A DNA stretch of 55,268 nucleotides from Planctomycetota bacterium (GCA_038213805.1 JBBQSO010000029.1:1-55268); one strand, 5' to 3'. Counted from the stretch's first letter, positions 6,402 to 50,551 are shown. The notes: a model not told the origin generated them from the sequence alone. Made by a program: numbers and translations.

Positions 6402-8261
6402 ATGGCCAACATCGCCGGCTACAACCGCAAGCTGACGGCCCTGATGCGCAAGCACGGCCTGGTCGAGGAGGCCGCCCTGGTCGCGATGGGCGACAAGGCC
6501 GCCAAGGAGGGCCTGCTGCTCGCCAGCCTGCTGATCACCGAGGCGCTGATCGACGAATCCACCCTGATCGGCCTGGTCAGCGAGGACTCCGCCCACCCGC
6601 CGATCGACCTCGACAAGCTCAAGATCGAGCTCGACGACATCCGCAACATCAACCAGGGCGCCGATATCATCACCGAGGAGCAGTCGAAATTCTACGGCGT
6701 GGTGCCGATCGCCATGGTCGGCGACCACCTGACCCTGGCGGTCGCGAATCCCTACGACGTGATCATGGTGGACAACCTCAAGATCACCGTCGGCAAAGTG
6801 ATCATGGCGGTGGTGTCCACCGAACGCGCCATCAACAAGGCCCGCGAACTCGCCTACCATGCCCAGGAAAAGGCCATGGAGTCGCTCATGGAGACCATGG
6901 GCAACGACGGTGACGAGATCACCGTCACCGAGAAGCCCAAAGAGGATGACGAAGGCGACCTGAGCGCCGCCGAAGGCGACGAGAGCCCGGCCGTGAAGCT
7001 GGTGCGCACCATCATCGCCCAGGCCATCCAGCAGGGCGCCTCCGACATCCATATCGAGCCGTTTGAAAAGCGCGTGCGCGTGCGCTTCCGCAAGGACGGC
7101 GTGCTGCACGAGATGTTCAATCCGCCCAAGCGCCTGGAAAAGGCCATGGTCTCGCGCATCAAGATCATGACCGACACCATGAACATCGCCGAGCGCGGCA
7201 AGCCCCAGGACGGGCGCATCCAGGTCAAGATGGCCGGCAACGCCATCGACATCCGCGTCAACTCGCTGCCCACCGTGCACGGCGAGAAGGTCTGCATGCG
7301 TATCCTGAACAAGTCCAATTTGGCGGGCTCGCTCGAAACCCTCAATTTCGAACCGGCGGTGCTCGACATCGTGCGCCGCGCGATCGGCGCGCCCTACGGC
7401 ATGCTGCTGGTCACGGGCCCGACCGGCTCCGGCAAGTCGACCACGCTGTACTCGTGCCTGCGCGCGGTGATGACCGTCGAGGACAACGTCAACACCGTCG
7501 AGGACCCGGTCGAATACGAGATCGAAGGCCTCAATCAGTGCCACGTCAATCCCAAGCGCGGGCTGACCTTCGGCGCGGCGCTGCGCGCCCTGCTGCGCCA
7601 GGACCCCGACACCATCATGATCGGCGAGATCCGCGACCAGGAGACCATCGAGATCGCGGTCAAGGCCGCGCTCACCGGCCATCTGGTGCTGTCGACGCTG
7701 CACACCAATGACGCGCCATCGACCATCGCGCGCATCGTCGACATGGGCATCGAACCCTTCCTCGCCGCCAGCACGGTGCTCGCCATCGTCGCCCAGCGCC
7801 TCGGCCGCCGCCTGTGCAAGAACTGCAAAGCGCCGATGCCCAAGGAGGAGATGCCGAGTCGCGAACAGCTTCTTGAGTCCGGCTACAAGCCCGAAGAGAT
7901 CGAGGGTCTCGCATTGCTCAAGCCGATCGGCTGCAGCCTGTGCGCCGGCGGCTACAAGGGCCGCTTCGCCCTGGTCGAATGCATGGAGATGACCGACGAC
8001 CTGCGCAAGGCGATCATCGGCGGCGCCAGCACCATCGATCTGCGCAAGGCCGCGATCAAGTGCGGCATGATCACCCTGCGCCGCGCCGGCCTGATGAACG
8101 CCATGCGCGGCGTGACCTCGCTCGAGGAGGTCATGCGCCACACCATGGGCGAAGAGGTCGGCAAGGAGGACGCGCCGGTGGTCAAGAAGGCCGCCGGCGA
8201 AGGCGAGGATGCGGCCGCGGAGGTCGAGCTGCCGAAGGAGACGGCGGAGGCGGGGACCTGA
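6402..8261 (+). CDS. pilB: Type IV pilus/T2SS assembly ATPase (PilB/GspE)
   Basis: ASDIHIEP, PQDGRI, GPTGSGKSTT, EDPVEY, LRQDPD, LSTLHTND, CKNC/CSLC zinc motifs. Confidence 0.92.
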   Translation: MANIAGYNRKLTALMRKHGLVEEAALVAMGDKAAKEGLLLASLLITEALIDESTLIGLVSEDSAHPPIDLDKLKIELDDIRNINQGADIITEEQSKFYGVVPIAMVGDHLTLAVANPYDVIMVDNLKITVGKVIMAVVSTERAINKARELAYHAQEKAMESLMETMGNDGDEITVTEKPKEDDEGDLSAAEGDESPAVKLVRTIIAQAIQQGASDIHIEPFEKRVRVRFRKDGVLHEMFNPPKRLEKAMVSRIKIMTDTMNIAERGKPQDGRIQVKMAGNAIDIRVNSLPTVHGEKVCMRILNKSNLAGSLETLNFEPAVLDIVRRAIGAPYGMLLVTGPTGSGKSTTLYSCLRAVMTVEDNVNTVEDPVEYEIEGLNQCHVNPKRGLTFGAALRALLRQDPDTIMIGEIRDQETIEIAVKAALTGHLVLSTLHTNDAPSTIARIVDMGIEPFLAASTVLAIVAQRLGRRLCKNCKAPMPKEEMPSREQLLESGYKPEEIEGLALLKPIGCSLCAGGYKGRFALVECMEMTDDLRKAIIGGASTIDLRKAAIKCGMITLRRAGLMNAMRGVTSLEEVMRHTMGEEVGKEDAPVVKKAAGEGEDAAAEVELPKETAEAGT

Positions 8262-8360
8262 CCCTAGACCCTAGAGGGGTGCTTCGGGATCATGCGCGGC
8301 GTTACGTGGAATATTCACTGGAGCTGGAAAAGTCTGGCTGTCCCTAGGGTCTAGGGTCTA
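8260..8360. repeat. Family C inverted cassette: (GACCCTA)2 ... CCCTAGGG(TCTAGGG)TCTA
   Basis: Left arm overlaps the pilB TGA; right arm contains the TAG of the convergent gene (8358-8360); GGCTGTC at 8336-8342. Confidence 0.85.
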
Positions 8361-10451: not shown

Positions 10452-10645
10452 GACGGATCGAACAGGAGGCGCGGAGACGCGGAGAATAGAGGAGGACGGC
10501 GGAGGACGGCCACTGGTCCGATAGCCACCTCGGTTATGTGAACGGTGGACCCGCAGGATGCGGTCAGGCGAGCCCGGCCCCCCTCTTCTCACCTCCGCGT
10601 CTCCGCGTCTTGTTTTATCCGGCTGTCCGCGTCAATCCGGCTGTC
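10452..10645. repeat. Family D inverted-repeat element (arms with two CGCGGAGA-type units and GGATARAACA)
   Basis: Left 10452-10485, right 10593-10627, duplicated ATCCGGCTGTC to 10645; arms homologous to 35132-35330 and 41793-41941. Confidence 0.85.
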
Positions 10646-13522: not shown

Positions 13523-13710
13523 GGCTGATGGCTGATGGCTGATGGCTGATGGCTGATGGCTGATGGCTGATGGCTGGCGGCTGGCGCCCCGAGCCCCTGG
13601 CCGGTGGCCTGGGGGCTCGGGACCCGAGGGATGCAGACTGCTGATACCCCGGGGGCAGAGAGCTGGCGCGCGAGCGCCGGCCATCAGCCATCAGCCATCA
13701 GCCATCAGCC
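13523..13710. repeat. Family A inverted cassette: (GGCTGAT)7(GGCTGGC)2 ... (GCCATCA)4
   Basis: Left arm 13523-13585, right arm 13680-13710; GC hairpin in the spacer. Confidence 0.95.
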
Positions 13711-17729: not shown

Positions 17730-17736
17730 GAGAAAG

Positions 17737-17889
17737 GTCCGGAAGTCCGGGGTCCGGAAGTCGACAGCCAACCGAGGCTCCGAGAGGTCCTGCGCTTGGA
17801 GGGGGTGAATGAATCCAAGAGGCGGCCGCCAGGTCCAGGGCTGTCCGACTTCCGAACTTCCGGACTTCCGGACTCCGGACTTCCGGACC
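17737..17889. repeat. Family B inverted cassette (empty): (GTCCGGRR)3-GTCGACAGCC ... GGCTGTC-C(GACTTCCG)n
   Basis: Left arm 17737-17769, right arm 17839-17889, between convergent stops. Confidence 0.92.
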
Positions 17890-17892
17890 CTC

Positions 17893-18466: not shown

Positions 18467-19255
18467 ATGCCGCTGACCAAACGCGTGATCGTGTGCCTGG
18501 ATGTGCGCGCCGGGCAGGTGACCAAGGGCGTCAAGTTCCAGGGCAACGTCGATCTCGGCGATCCGGTCGATTATGCGCGGCGCTATTACGAGCAGGGAGC
18601 GGACGAGCTGGTGTTCTACGACATCACCGCCTCGGCCGAGCAGCGCGGGTTGTTCGTCGACGTGGTGCGGCGCGTGGCCGAGGCGATCTTCATCCCCTTC
18701 TCGGTCGGCGGCGGCATCCGCTCGGTCGAGGCGATGCGCACGGTGCTGCTGGCCGGCGCCGAGAAGGTCTCGGTCAACTCACCGGCGGTGCGCGATCCGC
18801 AGCTCATCGCCGCGGGCGCGAAGGCCTTCGGCGCGCAGTGCGTGGTGCTGGGGATGGACGCGCGCCGCGTCCCCGCCAGCGCCGCCATCCCCTCCGGCTA
18901 CGAGGTCGTCATCGACGGTGGCCGCACTCCGACCGGCAAGGACGCGGTCGCCTGGGCGCGCGAGGCCGAGGCCCTGGGCGCCGGCGAGATCTGCCTGAAC
19001 GCCATCGACACCGATGGCGTGCGCCAGGGTTATGAACTGACTATCACCCGCCTGATCGCCGATGCGGTGCGCATTCCAGTGATCGCCTCCGGCGGCGGCG
19101 GCACCCCCGCCCACCTCGCCGCCGCGCTCGATGCCGGGCCTGCCGGCGGCCACGCCGACGCGGCGCTGATCGCGAGCATGGTGCATTATGGGGATTACAC
19201 AGTCGACAGCATCAAGCGCGAGCTCCAGGCGACCGGAGTGGCGGTACGGGTCTAG
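18467..19255 (+). CDS. hisF: Imidazole glycerol phosphate synthase cyclase subunit
   Basis: [53 protein letters not shown]. Confidence 0.97.
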
Positions 19256-19268
19256 GGCATCGCGCGAT

Positions 19269-19361
19269 GCTGATGGCTGATGGCTGATGGCTGATGGCTG
19301 ATGGCTGATGGCTGATGGCTGATGGCTGATGGCTGATGGCTGATGGCTGATGGCTGATGGC
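19269..19361 (+). repeat. Family A single-arm array, about 13 x GGCTGAT
   Basis: Begins 14 nt after the hisF stop; preceded by palindrome GCATCGCGCGATGC (19257-19270); no inverted arm seen. Confidence 0.95.
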
Positions 19362-19489
19362 CCAGGGATTCCGGAGTTATTCCCGACCGCAAGGATCGGA
19401 TCGCGCGCCTTACCCTGCATTGCTCGCGCCTCGCGCCACCCCGACCCGTTCCGGCCTTGCGTCCCATCGCTGAGCGTCGAGAAAGGCGC

Positions 19490-24757: not shown

Positions 24758-26281
<1,524 letters not shown>

Positions 26282-26283
26282 GC

Positions 26284-26775
26284 GTCCGGAAGTCCGGGAG
26301 TCCGGAAGTCCGGGAGTCGACAACCACCGGGATCCCCACGTGGCGAGCTTCACCCATTTCTCAGAGATCCAGGCGTGGAAAGAGGCTCGCGCGACAGTCG
26401 TCGCGGTCCACGCGCTGCTTGATCATCCACGGTTCGCGCAACGGTTCGCGCTGCAGCATCAGCTCAGCCGGGCCGCACTTTCCGTGATGAACAACATCGC
26501 CGAAGGGTTTGCGCGCGGGAGCGACCCTCAATTCTGCCACTTCCTTGACATCGCGCGCGGTTCGTCGGCCGAGGTCGAGTCGATGTTGTATGTTATAGAG
26601 GATCTGGCGCCTGAATTGGCGCCGGACTTGGTCGAGTTACGCGGGCGCATCGATCTCATGATTTCACTGATTTCCAAGCTCTCCAAATACCTCCGTGGCT
26701 CCAGAGCTCGGGAAGCGGAGGAATCCTATGGTTCCAAGCCGACTTCCGGACTCCCGGACTTCCGGACTTCCGGAC
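26284..26775. mobile_element. Family B inverted cassette filled with a four-helix-bundle gene (putative mobile cassette)
   Basis: Left arm (GTCCGGRA)4-GTCGACAACC 26284-26325; right arm GAC(TYCCGGAC)4 26741-26775; separates guaB from guaA. Mobility is inferred. Confidence 0.6.
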
Positions 26776-26780
26776 TGTGA
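26340..26780 (+). CDS. Four helix bundle protein (23S rRNA intervening-sequence protein family, Avd-like)
   Basis: F.EIQAWKEA, FAL..QL.RAALSVMNNIAEGFAR.S...F..FL.IARGS.AEV.S.LY; GTG start; atypical codon usage. Confidence 0.9.
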   Translation: MASFTHFSEIQAWKEARATVVAVHALLDHPRFAQRFALQHQLSRAALSVMNNIAEGFARGSDPQFCHFLDIARGSSAEVESMLYVIEDLAPELAPDLVELRGRIDLMISLISKLSKYLRGSRAREAEESYGSKPTSGLPDFRTSGL

Positions 26781-26788
26781 CTCCCCCC

Positions 26789-28339
<1,551 letters not shown>

Positions 28340-28492: not shown

Positions 28493-29446
28493 ATGCCGGT
28501 CTTCTCTGACAACGCCCTGTCCATCGGCCGCACCCCGCTGGTGCGCCTCAATCGCGTCACCGCCGGCTGCGGCGCCACCGTGCTGGCCAAGATCGAGGGG
28601 CGCAACCCCGCCTATTCGGTGAAGTGCCGCATCGGCGCGGCCATGGTGTGGGATGCCGAGAAGTCCGGCAAGCTCAAGGCCGGCATGGAGATCGTCGAGC
28701 CGACCAGCGGCAATACCGGCATCGCCCTGGCCTTCGTCGCAGCCGCGCGCGGCTACAAGATCACCCTGACCATGCCCGAGACCATGTCGATCGAGCGCCG
28801 CCGCGTGCTCGCCGGCTTCGGTGCGACCCTGGTGCTGACGCCCGGCGCCGAAGGCATGAACGGCGCAGTGAAGAAGGCCGAGGAGATCGCCGCCTCGGAT
28901 AGCGCGCGCTGGTACATGCCCCAGCAGTTCAAGAACCCCGCCAATCCCGCCATCCACGAGGCCACTACCGGCCCCGAGATCTGGGAGGATACGAATGGGG
29001 GCATGGACGTGTTCGTCGCCGGTGTCGGTACCGGCGGCACCATCACCGGCGTCTCGCGTTACTTCAAGAACATCAGGAAGAAGGCGATCATCAGCGTCGC
29101 CGTCGAGCCCGCGCTCAGCCCGCTGCTGACCCAGAAGCGCGCCGGTCAGGAACTGAAGCCCGCCGGACACAAGATCCAGGGCATCGGCGCGAACTTCATC
29201 CCCGAGATCCTCGACCAGTCGCTGCTCGACCGCGTCGAGACCGTCAGCGTCGACGAGTCGGTCGAGATGGCACGGCGCCTAATGCGGGAGGAAGGCATCC
29301 TGTGCGGCATCTCCTGCGGCGCCGCTGCCGCCGTTGCAGTGCGCCTGGCGAAGCTGCCCGAGTTCGCAGGCAAGACCATCGTGACCGTGCTGCCCGATTC
29401 GGGCGAGCGCTACTTGTCGACGGTGTTGTTCGAGGGGTTGGGCTGA
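28493..29446 (+). CDS. cysK: Cysteine synthase A
   Basis: [46 protein letters not shown]. Confidence 0.96.
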
Positions 29447-29660
29447 TGGCTGATGGCTGATGGCTGATGGCTGATGGCTGATGGCTGATGGCTGCCGCCT
29501 CCTCATTCAATCCAACGTGTACATCGGTAATATCCGTTTCCCGAATTGAATGAGCCCGCGGAGCGGGCGCATACGTGCCTGTCCCGCAATCGCACCGTGC
29601 GTGACATTTTATTGCTGATTTTCTCGCGCCTCGCGCCTCAACACTCACGCGTCAGCGTCA
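29441..29660. repeat. Hybrid cassette: (GGCTGAT)7 left arm, degenerate CTCGCGC right arm
   Basis: cysK TGA lies in the first unit; right arm about 29623-29660 ends in the fumarase-beta stop; inner inverted repeat CTCATTCAAT/ATTGAATGAG. Confidence 0.85.
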
Positions 29661-30243: not shown

Positions 30244-30306
30244 TCTAGGGTCTAGGGTCTCGCGTCTCGCGTCTCGCGTCTCGCGTCTCGCGTCTCGCAT
30301 CTCGCA
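30244..30306 (-). repeat. Chimeric in-phase heptamer array (TCTAGGG)2(TCTCGCG)5(TCTCGCA)2
   Basis: Lies between the hydratase alpha stop and beta start. Confidence 0.92.
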
Positions 30307-31273: not shown

Positions 31274-31400
31274 GACGATAGACCTTAGACCCTAGACCCT
31301 AGGGACAGCCAGCGCGCGTTTCCCGCGATCGCCACCGCATCCGACGATTCGTGAATCCTGAGGCGCCAGCCGGTTCCCTAGGGTCTAGGGTCTAGGGTCT
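31274..31400. repeat. Family C inverted cassette: (GACCCTA)n-GGGACAGCC ... CCCTAGGG(TCTAGGG)2
   Basis: Left arm 31274-31310; right arm 31376-31400 supplies the lipoprotein stop (31385-31387). Confidence 0.9.
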
Positions 31401-32786: not shown

Positions 32787-32841
32787 GGTCTGAAATCCTG
32801 AGGGCGTTGAAACGGCAATTCGACGACGTCGAACGTCGGCA

Positions 32842-32952
32842 GACCCGAGACCCGAGACCCGAGGCAGTGGACATGTGGCAAAATCCGCGCCCCGACGTCG
32901 CCACCAACCTCTGAACCACGACCTAGGGTCTAGGGCCTAGGGCCTAGGGTCT
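32842..32952. repeat. Family C inverted cassette: (GACCCGA)3 ... (YCTAGGG)4
   Basis: Left arm 32842-32862; right arm 32922-32952 contains the thrS stop (32944-32946). Confidence 0.88.
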
Positions 32953-38613: not shown

Positions 38614-38739
38614 GTCCGGAAGTCCGGGGGTCCGGAAGTCCGGAAGTCGACAGCCCCGCGCTGCACAGAGCTCTTTTTTCACGCCCACCACCCCCGACCA
38701 CGAGACTTCCGGATTTCCGGACTTCCGGACTTCCGGACC
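38614..38739. repeat. Family B inverted cassette (empty): (GTCCGGRR)4-GTCGACAGCC ... GAC(TTCCGGAY)4
   Basis: Left arm 38614-38655, 48-nt spacer, right arm 38704-38739; lies within the ilvB-ilvN operon. Confidence 0.93.
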
Positions 38740-41792: not shown

Positions 41793-41941
41793 GACAGCCG
41801 ATAAAACAGGAGGCGCAGAGGCGCGGAGATAAGAGGAGCGAGATCCGGGAATCTGCAGTCCGCGCTCGTCACCGGAGCCCCATCTTCCAAGCTCCTGCCT
41901 CCCCCTCCGCGTCTCCGCGCCTCCTGTTTTATCCGGCCGTC
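41793..41941. repeat. Family D inverted-repeat element
   Basis: GACAGCCGATAAAACAGGAGGCGCAGAGGCGCGGAG ... CTCCGCGTCTCCGCGCCTCCTGTTTTATCCGGCCGTC, between convergent genes. Confidence 0.9.
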
Positions 41942-50376: not shown

Positions 50377-50551
50377 GGCTGGCGGCTGGCGGCTGGCGGC
50401 GAAAATGACAGCCGACCTCGATGTGTGCTTATTGAACTCACCCCGTGACGGGGAGTCCACGTGCCGATGCCTGACATACGCGCTGTCAGCCATCAGCCAT
50501 CAGCCATCAGCCATCAGCCGTCTGCTGTCAGCCTTCAGCCTTCAGCCTTCC
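50377..50551. repeat. Family A inverted cassette: (GGCTGGC)3 ... 10 in-phase GCCATCA-type units
   Basis: Left arm 50377-50400; right arm 50482-50551, drifting GCCATCA to GCCTTCA; GACAGCC at 50407. Confidence 0.88.

Follow-up and report, generated by a model that had tools for sequence, protein, structure and literature searches.

The four-helix-bundle proteins of PF05635 were first found within inserts of ribosomal RNA. The family, PF05635/TIGR02436, has a very large membership, yet its function is, to our knowledge, not known. The intervening sequences (IVSs) of rRNA and the heptamer tandem repeats of bacteria, which include the STRR of cyanobacteria, have been unexplained for decades. Avd is a small four-helix-bundle pentamer that works on nucleic acid. 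This accessory protein of diversity-generating retroelements is described as related to PF05635 (PMC10053308). The IVS in helix 45 of the Coxiella burnetii 23S rRNA has a stem of 28 bp that is reported to be cut in its middle by RNase III (PMC4990558). Another repeat, TAACTGA, is known as heptamer direct repeats from Beggiatoaceae, cyanobacteria and Bacteroidetes, with one inverted case; the terms 'intervening', 'four helix' and 'S23' do not occur in that paper (PMC4679880). Here, we describe a PF05635 gene between tandem-repeat arms, an arrangement of which we found no description in open-access papers or preprints.

The cassette resembles the ORF-bearing 23S rRNA IVSs of Coxiella burnetii, Leptospira and Brucella, as these are described, in its size (about 430-490 nt) and in carrying a PF05635 ('S23p') gene (PMC4990558). 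Complementary termini close both, with a stem of 28 bp in the IVS and 36 bp in the cassette; both have a GC content below that of the host, are sporadic among relatives and have a putative horizontal origin (PMC4990558). However, the cassette lies between protein genes and not in an rRNA helix (9, 25 or 45), and its arms, which are tandem 8-mers, have about 260 gene-less counterparts elsewhere in the genome. The second parallel is that of REPINs and RAYTs (PMC3116915, PMC3337134). In both systems each repeat family has a single gene, which lies between inverted copies of a short repeat, and this repeat is also scattered through intergenic DNA as hundreds of inverted pairs; in both, the repeat families differ among close relatives. 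The cassette gene encodes a 146-aa four-helix-bundle protein instead of a Y1 HUH transposase, and its repeat is a tandem word of 7-8 nt with unique pair interiors, whereas a REPIN is a palindrome of 20-40 nt. With the TAACTGA repeats, as far as they are described, the arrays share short tandem 7-nt words, a nearly exclusively intergenic position beside gene starts and lineage specificity (PMC4679880), but in the genome studied here they form inverted pairs whose polarity is fixed, and they are linked with a gene family. Like MITEs, they are short, gene-less, intergenic multicopy units with terminal inverted repeats; unlike MITEs, the octamer pairs have no common interior and no associated transposase.

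The locus connects a protein family with a kind of bacterial repeat DNA, neither of which has been explained so far, and this link is directly testable. There is one intact, selected gene with arms of a fixed length of four units, there are hundreds of gene-less sites with the same word in strict orientation, and among close relatives some have the cassette and the arrays whereas others lack them. Should the protein bind or spread its own word, this would be a new partnership of gene and repeat, and the protein would be a sequence-programmable nucleic-acid-binding ring.

The cassette between guaB and guaA

The window, that is the whole stretch of 55,268 nt that was analysed, is contig C29 of the assembly of a Planctomycetota bacterium (G000; 5.5 Mb, 69% G+C, 90% complete). 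A Pfam search identified the genes that flank the cassette as those of IMP dehydrogenase (guaB, 24824..26281, + strand; PF00478, E 5e-160) and GMP synthase (guaA, 26789..28339, + strand). Between them lies a unit of 492 bp that consists of an octamer arm, a PF05635 gene and an inverted octamer arm. The left arm, (GTCCGGRA)4 followed by GTCG, was located by repeat and complementarity analysis at 26284..26319 (+ strand); the stop codon of guaB (TAA) is at 26279-26281, and the arm begins 2-3 nt downstream, in agreement with the 3 nt given in the earlier note. A spacer of 20 nt (26320..26339, + strand) leads to the GTG start of the gene for the four-helix-bundle protein of 146 aa (26340..26780, + strand). 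The right arm, CGAC followed by (TYCCGGAC)4 (26740..26775, + strand), overlaps the last 13 codons of this gene, and the ATG of guaA is found 13 nt past the arm. The right arm is indeed translated as the tail of the protein, whose C-terminal 13 residues are PTSGLPDFRTSGL. The arms are 36 nt each, 420 nt apart, contain 4.4-4.5 copies of the 8-mer and have a complementarity of 92%; when they are offset by one unit, a stretch of 27 nt is 100% complementary. The final GTCG of the left arm together with the first bases of the spacer reads GTCGACAACC, which is similar to GTCGACAGCC, the inner motif of the gene-less elements described below. When the unit is folded as RNA, its paired arms enclose it completely (-245.5 kcal/mol, z -5.9; none of 100 shuffles did as well). 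Scanning of 26150-26900 for promoters and terminators gave 0 and 0 sites, and at the guaB-guaA junction, the sole junction inspected for target-site duplication, there was no direct repeat beside the arms.

Arm mapping and the profile matches agree with the earlier note in that the arms bracket exactly one 146-aa gene. The protein scored well above the cut-offs of both profiles, PF05635 (83.9 bits, cut-off 33.8, E 1.1e-23) and TIGR02436 (84.6 bits, cut-off 24, E 5.1e-24), and in a Pfam search of the gene PF05635 was the sole match. Residues 9-120 match PDB 2gsc (XCC0516 from Xanthomonas; E 7.6e-15), which was deposited with five chains and whose structure is described as a homopentameric toroid (PMC4990558). 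By homology, the cassette protein is probably a pentameric four-helix-bundle ring. The codon usage of the gene, which had been called atypical, is so: its GC3 is 0.707 versus 0.955 for guaB and 0.934 for guaA, and it falls under the first percentile of the genome (0.743; median 0.896). The GC content of the cassette is 59.6% and that of the flanking genes 68%. Between G000 and its relative G010, dN/dS of the four-helix-bundle gene is 0.153 (dS 0.34), as compared with 0.06 for guaB and 0.043 for guaA, and it is therefore a working gene. Besides being intact, the gene is subject to purifying selection, and its composition is foreign.

For a comparison of the insertion site, 30 relatives were searched for guaA, the DNA 5' of guaA was read and 15 guaB-guaA junctions were examined; the cassette is present in two of these. 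In G010, the closest relative (aa identity of guaA 98.5%, of guaB 99.4%), it has five left units and encodes a four-helix-bundle protein 89% identical to that of G000. Empty alleles, for which the earlier note had suggested looking in related genomes, exist as well. G003, the next closest relative, whose guaA is 96-97% identical, has no cassette but a guaB-guaA spacer of 39 nt with the 12-bp palindrome GCGTCCGGACGC, which is what a merger of the outermost left and right units over their common TCCGGA core would leave; the palindrome of the empty allele, GTCCGGAC, corresponds to one half of a left unit joined to one half of a right unit. Seven other junctions measure 14-162 nt and are free of arrays; for the more distant relatives the array-free range is 14-106 nt. 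In a BLAST comparison of 20 kb of the window with G003 and G010, of which only the coordinates were used, the 493 nt of the cassette are replaced by 19 nt in G003, a gene-less element with the cassette's word (17731-17892) by 6 nt and an element of another word (19244-19442) by 10 nt. Whole elements, including their interiors, are therefore either there or missing as units. For these three elements the idea that the interiors are ancestral intergenic DNA edged by added arrays is rejected. From the comparison of relatives, we infer that the cassette has moved.

Gene-less hairpins are found at the same junction in other relatives, with different 7-mers in other species of the genus: (AGCTACG)n...(CTCGCAG)n in G008 and G009, (GTCCGAT)3-GTCTTTTGAC-(TCGGACA)4 in G007 and, in G017, which belongs to another genus, single words GTCCGGAA and TTCCGGAC on either side of copies of the end of the G017 guaB. 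The gene may therefore have entered an element that was there before it; alternatively, such an element may have been lost from G003. The word GTCCGGAA at the G017 junction coincides with the final codons of the G017 guaB, and the end of guaB is present there three times. The G008 spacer (L010, 185 nt) has its heptamer hairpin twice in tandem, and in front of each hairpin the final ~25 nt of guaB, stop codon included, are repeated; at the G009 junction the final 9 nt of guaB (CCGGAATAG) are doubled. The junction of G005 (L013) contains an unrelated, array-free insert of 371 nt that apparently has a small open frame. Contigs of three public runs link guaB and guaA by 28-40 other letters; with a likeness of 90%, they stem from relatives and not from the source strain.

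Dispersed arrays of the source genome

The cassette does not have such arms to itself: they belong to a genome-wide, strictly polar family of arrays. About 262-264 arrays (GTCCGGAA)n with at least two units were found genome-wide (a count of 264 corresponds to 132 per orientation). Within 600 nt, 95 pairs are in the order left-then-right and 0 in the order right-then-left; 74 arrays are unpaired. The description of the locus as a 'filled' cassette holds up, because in approximately 95 elements of the genome identical arms enclose no gene. The arrays read 5'->3' from the adjacent gene into the intergenic space, and also in solo arrays the word points away from the nearest gene, for GTCCGGAA in 61/66 and for GATGGCT in 80/85. 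The polarity of three further words is equally strict (74:0, 32:0 and 29:1). The most common array length is exactly four units (126/264), with more than four in just 12, a distribution not as expected from simple slippage. The inner end of the array is GTC in 95-98% and the outer flank is rich in purines. The left arm of the cassette matches this family in its word, the length of four units and the inner GTC.

The interiors of the pairs have a median of 90 nt and range from 34 to 428 nt, the longest being the cassette. Comparison of the 95 interiors among themselves gave 16 short non-self matches, all near the arms, so that the common sequence is at most ~20 arm-proximal bases. Only 5/95 had another match in the genome, short and arm-proximal or repeat-like; the view that the interiors are captured copies of genome DNA was rejected on these grounds. 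A PF05635 profile built from 134 proteins, run against six-frame translations of the interiors of 230 elements of four words, matched two, both known cassettes. Decayed cassettes were thus rejected as the origin of the gene-less elements, and since there is no gene trace they are also not deletion copies. On the codon-usage gene calls made in this analysis, 88 of the 95 pairs are between two called genes, 3 are inside a call and 4 are at contig ends. The median distance of the elements to stop codons is 17-18 nt. Among the 88, the neighbouring genes are arranged in all four possible ways (32, 23, 18 and 15), 15/88 being between divergent genes.

Two gene-less elements with words of the cassette's family are present in the window in addition to the cassette: GTCCGGAA x3.4 ... 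GACTTCCG x5.4 at 17737..17888 and a second one with 4.4 + 4.4 units and an interior of 55 nt at 38614..38738. The window carries eleven more array elements of other words (GATGGCT, ACCCTAG, GGAGACGC and others), at 675-907, 8260-8360, 10465-10610, 13523-13710, 19269-19437, 29441-29639, 30244-30305, 31279-31400, 32841-32949, 41810-41924 and 50377-50547.

Perfect arrays of at least three copies in G000 have a period of 7 in 407 cases and of 8 in 89; periods 6, 9 and 10 account for 79, 13 and 0, those of period 6 being mostly within genes. The most abundant word, GATGGCT (190 arrays), also brackets a PF05635 gene at C19:6015, the second (75 arrays) is the word of the guaB-guaA cassette, and the PF05635 gene at C115 lies between CTTCTCG-type arrays. 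Repeat arms are thus present around 3/5 PF05635 genes of G000, and the two remaining ones have arrays on a single side. The only abundant octamer word of the genome surrounds its only octamer-clade PF05635 gene. Words that flank the five PF05635 genes are used by 307/496 perfect 7/8-mer arrays of G000, and an equal number of cassette words taken from other genomes matches a mean of 8 and at most 27 of these 496. In G007 the match of the dispersed words to the genome's own cassette words is weak (7/36 exact, with a mean of 4 and a maximum of 11 in the control). The abundant words ACCCTAG and ACTCCGC have no PF05635 gene alongside in this 90%-complete assembly.

PF05635 genes and arrays in other genomes

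Repeat arms occur not only at three of the five family members of the source genome but at most members in three wider samples. Among relatives, an array of a 6-9-nt word lies upstream of 39 and downstream of 46 of 55 PF05635 loci; for control genes of similar size in the array-rich G000 the numbers are 284/895 and 352/895. Strictly complementary pairs exceed chance by far, with 20/55 at PF05635 loci versus 5/895 at controls. The second sample, from genome_contigs, comprised the 80 nearest protein relatives (35-48% identical), mostly from Bacteroidota, Verrucomicrobiota and Ignavibacteria; of the 74 with full flanks, 58 had an upstream array, 54 a downstream array and 26 a strict pair. In metagenomes, the loci with full flanks gave 43/61 upstream, 50/61 downstream and 22/61 strict pairs, versus 7/86, 11/86 and 0/86 in displaced windows of the metagenome loci. 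The best relatives of the cassette protein in genome_contigs and metagenome_contigs were only 34-52% identical.

The array period follows the protein tree, and the word does so loosely. Arrays of period 8 and 7 number 90 and 36 in genome_contigs and 59 and 46 in metagenomes, and a large planctomycete clade of PF05635 proteins has period 7 exclusively. A phylogeny of 134 proteins was built with FastTree; across its 123 array-bearing rows the period switches 16 times, whereas 300 shuffles average 41 changes and never give fewer than 30, a contrast inflated by kinship and by two different ways of sampling. The proteins nearest to that of the cassette have the words GTCCGAT (G002, G009), GTCCGGG (G007) and GTCTGGGA (G027). 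Words still drift: they are within one mismatch in only 26% of protein pairs that are at least 70% identical and in 1-4% of more distant pairs. A conserved GTC as a rule of the word was rejected, being found in only 21/77 and 19/68 upstream words.

Genomes with and without the gene differ in their arrays. The two genomes that have the cassette contain 159 (G000) and 256 (G010) windows of GTCCGGRA x3, as compared with 13, 4, 0 and 0 in G003, G002, G004 and G017; G003 retains about 8 GTCCGGAA arrays without a cassette. GATGGCT x3 windows occur 748 times in G000, 76 times in G010 and 13 times in G003; the search covered 28 further genomes, all of which had 0. The density of perfect heptamer arrays, determined in samples of 307-400 kb from few, related and mostly incomplete genomes, is 3.3 per Mb in G004 (same genus) and 0 in G014, both without a PF05635 match, and 0 in G019, which has one weak match; it is 83 in G007 (9 matches), 32 in G021 (7) and 74 in G000 (5). 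G026 has 52 PF05635 matches, yet 0 heptamer arrays in 400 kb. With the exception of G026, this is a strong hint that array density is higher in genomes with several PF05635 genes. G026 (9.3 Mb, 35% G+C) is from the cassette's phylum, and many of its PF05635 matches score identically and have the same in-frame stop codons; two of its gene copies (L048, L060) are 98% identical over 536 bp, have unrelated flanks and are without tandem arms.

A conserved leader of ~110 nt is present 5' of the gene at 20/55 PF05635 loci (L002 1330-1480, L003 1350-1480 and L004 1350-1480, from contigs C6, C9 and C115 of G000, plus 17 loci); the guaB-guaA cassette is without it. Its stem, CGTGCTCGSCGTCAAGG...CCTTGACSSCTGCGCGCG, encloses a variable hairpin, and one position apparently covaries (G with C, or C with G). 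The leader had no match in Rfam, and an Rfam scan of five PF05635 loci gave only chance matches to miRNA-type hairpins, every one below the gathering score. At one locus of G012 (L056, 1081-1307 and 2045-2150), the long GACCAGG-type arrays on either side of the gene are co-oriented and not inverted. Many PF05635 genes in the contigs of G002, G010 and G012 lie ~50-150 nt from a contig end, which suggests that arrays break short-read assemblies and that genes and arrays are underestimated in number.

Explanations for the association of gene and arrays

We consider the cassette to be an IVS-type insertable unit outside rRNA whose protein is tied to its own dispersed repeat family, a reading to which we assign a probability of roughly 0.55. 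The guaB-guaA cassette would then be the one gene-bearing member of the octamer-array family, and the gene would have come with its arms or made them. The ring protein may recognise the repeated word, with approximately one unit per subunit across the arm of ~35 nt, and together with replication or repair functions of the host it could keep or spread arrays at gene boundaries; the nearest parallel would be RAYTs and REPINs. The complementarity of the arms would be kept in DNA, in which both strands are alike. In the guaB-guaA transcript the arms could in addition form a stem of 36 bp, and this would be a candidate substrate of RNase III as in the rRNA IVSs; cleavage of the cassette transcript by this enzyme is possible. 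It is tempting to speculate further that PF05635 rings in general are trans-acting partners of unrecognised self-propagating repeats, that each clade seeds its own word of 7 or 8 nt as inverted arrays at gene boundaries, that rRNA IVSs, STRR-type heptamers and operon cassettes are one system and that the guaB-guaA cassette is the octamer master copy; this extension is tentative and the odds are against it.

A different explanation places the function of the arms in RNA: they would pair in the guaB-guaA transcript, RNase III would cut, the two mRNAs would be separated and the four-helix-bundle message released or destroyed, and the gene-less elements would be hairpins for RNA processing or stability. 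The closure of the whole cassette by its arms as RNA (z -5.9) fits this, as do the likely co-transcription, given that no promoter- or terminator-like site was found inside the cassette, the RNase III gene present in G000, the RNase III cut in the 28-bp stem described for rRNA IVSs of this family (PMC4990558) and the position of the elements at a median of 17 nt past stop codons. However, a stem maintained as RNA would be expected to tolerate G·U on the sense strand, and G·U-type mismatches are not above A·C-type ones, neither in the arms of 55 co-directional gene-less elements (75 vs 77) nor in those of 20 cassettes (20 vs 13). An RNA stem is also indifferent to the order of its arms, yet the order is fixed at 95:0; 15/88 elements lie between divergent genes and partnerless solo arrays are common (74). 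Without an excess of G·U and with a fixed arm order, pairing looks strand-symmetric and set up in DNA, and arm complementarity looks to be maintained there and not by selection for an RNA stem. We therefore regard the RNA explanation as doubtful. For the same reason, only one half of what the earlier note had proposed for this repeat-bounded cassette holds up: mobility is favoured by the comparison of relatives, whereas looping out of the mRNA finds no G·U bias in its favour.

It is quite unlikely that the octamer hairpin is an older, gene-independent resident, in the loop of which the gene was inserted, and that the protein is unrelated to the arrays. Gene-less hairpins at guaB-guaA in G007, G008, G009 and G017 would be in line with such a passenger gene, there are more than 100 gene-less arrays for each cassette and the arrays that persist in cassette-free G003 do so without the gene, but across phyla the period and type of word track the protein tree, the sole octamer-clade gene of G000 has around it the sole abundant octamer word of this genome, arrays lie beside the majority of PF05635 genes in three samples and beside few controls, and related genomes free of the gene are nearly free of arrays. 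A passenger fits poorly with the link of period and protein and with these contrasts between genomes.

If the protein is instead tied to its repeat, as we favour, the question arises of whether another enzyme moves the arrays. Unlike diversity-generating retroelements, the cassette has no template or variable repeats. A reverse transcriptase is dismissed: the earlier note had seen none in the window, and there are 0 matches to PF00078 in the whole 90%-complete genome. A Y1 transposase of the IS200/IS605 or RAYT type that moves the arrays with the four-helix-bundle gene as cargo is very improbable and was dismissed, since, although RAYT genes serve dispersed hairpin repeats in the systems described (PMC3116915, PMC3337134) and G000 has five PF01797 matches, two of them strong, none of the five has arrays of the abundant 7-/8-mer words in its 900-nt flanks and the association across genomes is with PF05635. 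The two strong PF01797 genes (C48:21166-21507 and C97:14408-14752) are flanked by palindromes of their own, CCCAGGGC-N-GCCCTGGG, and apparently represent a second, independent system of the RAYT/REP type in G000.
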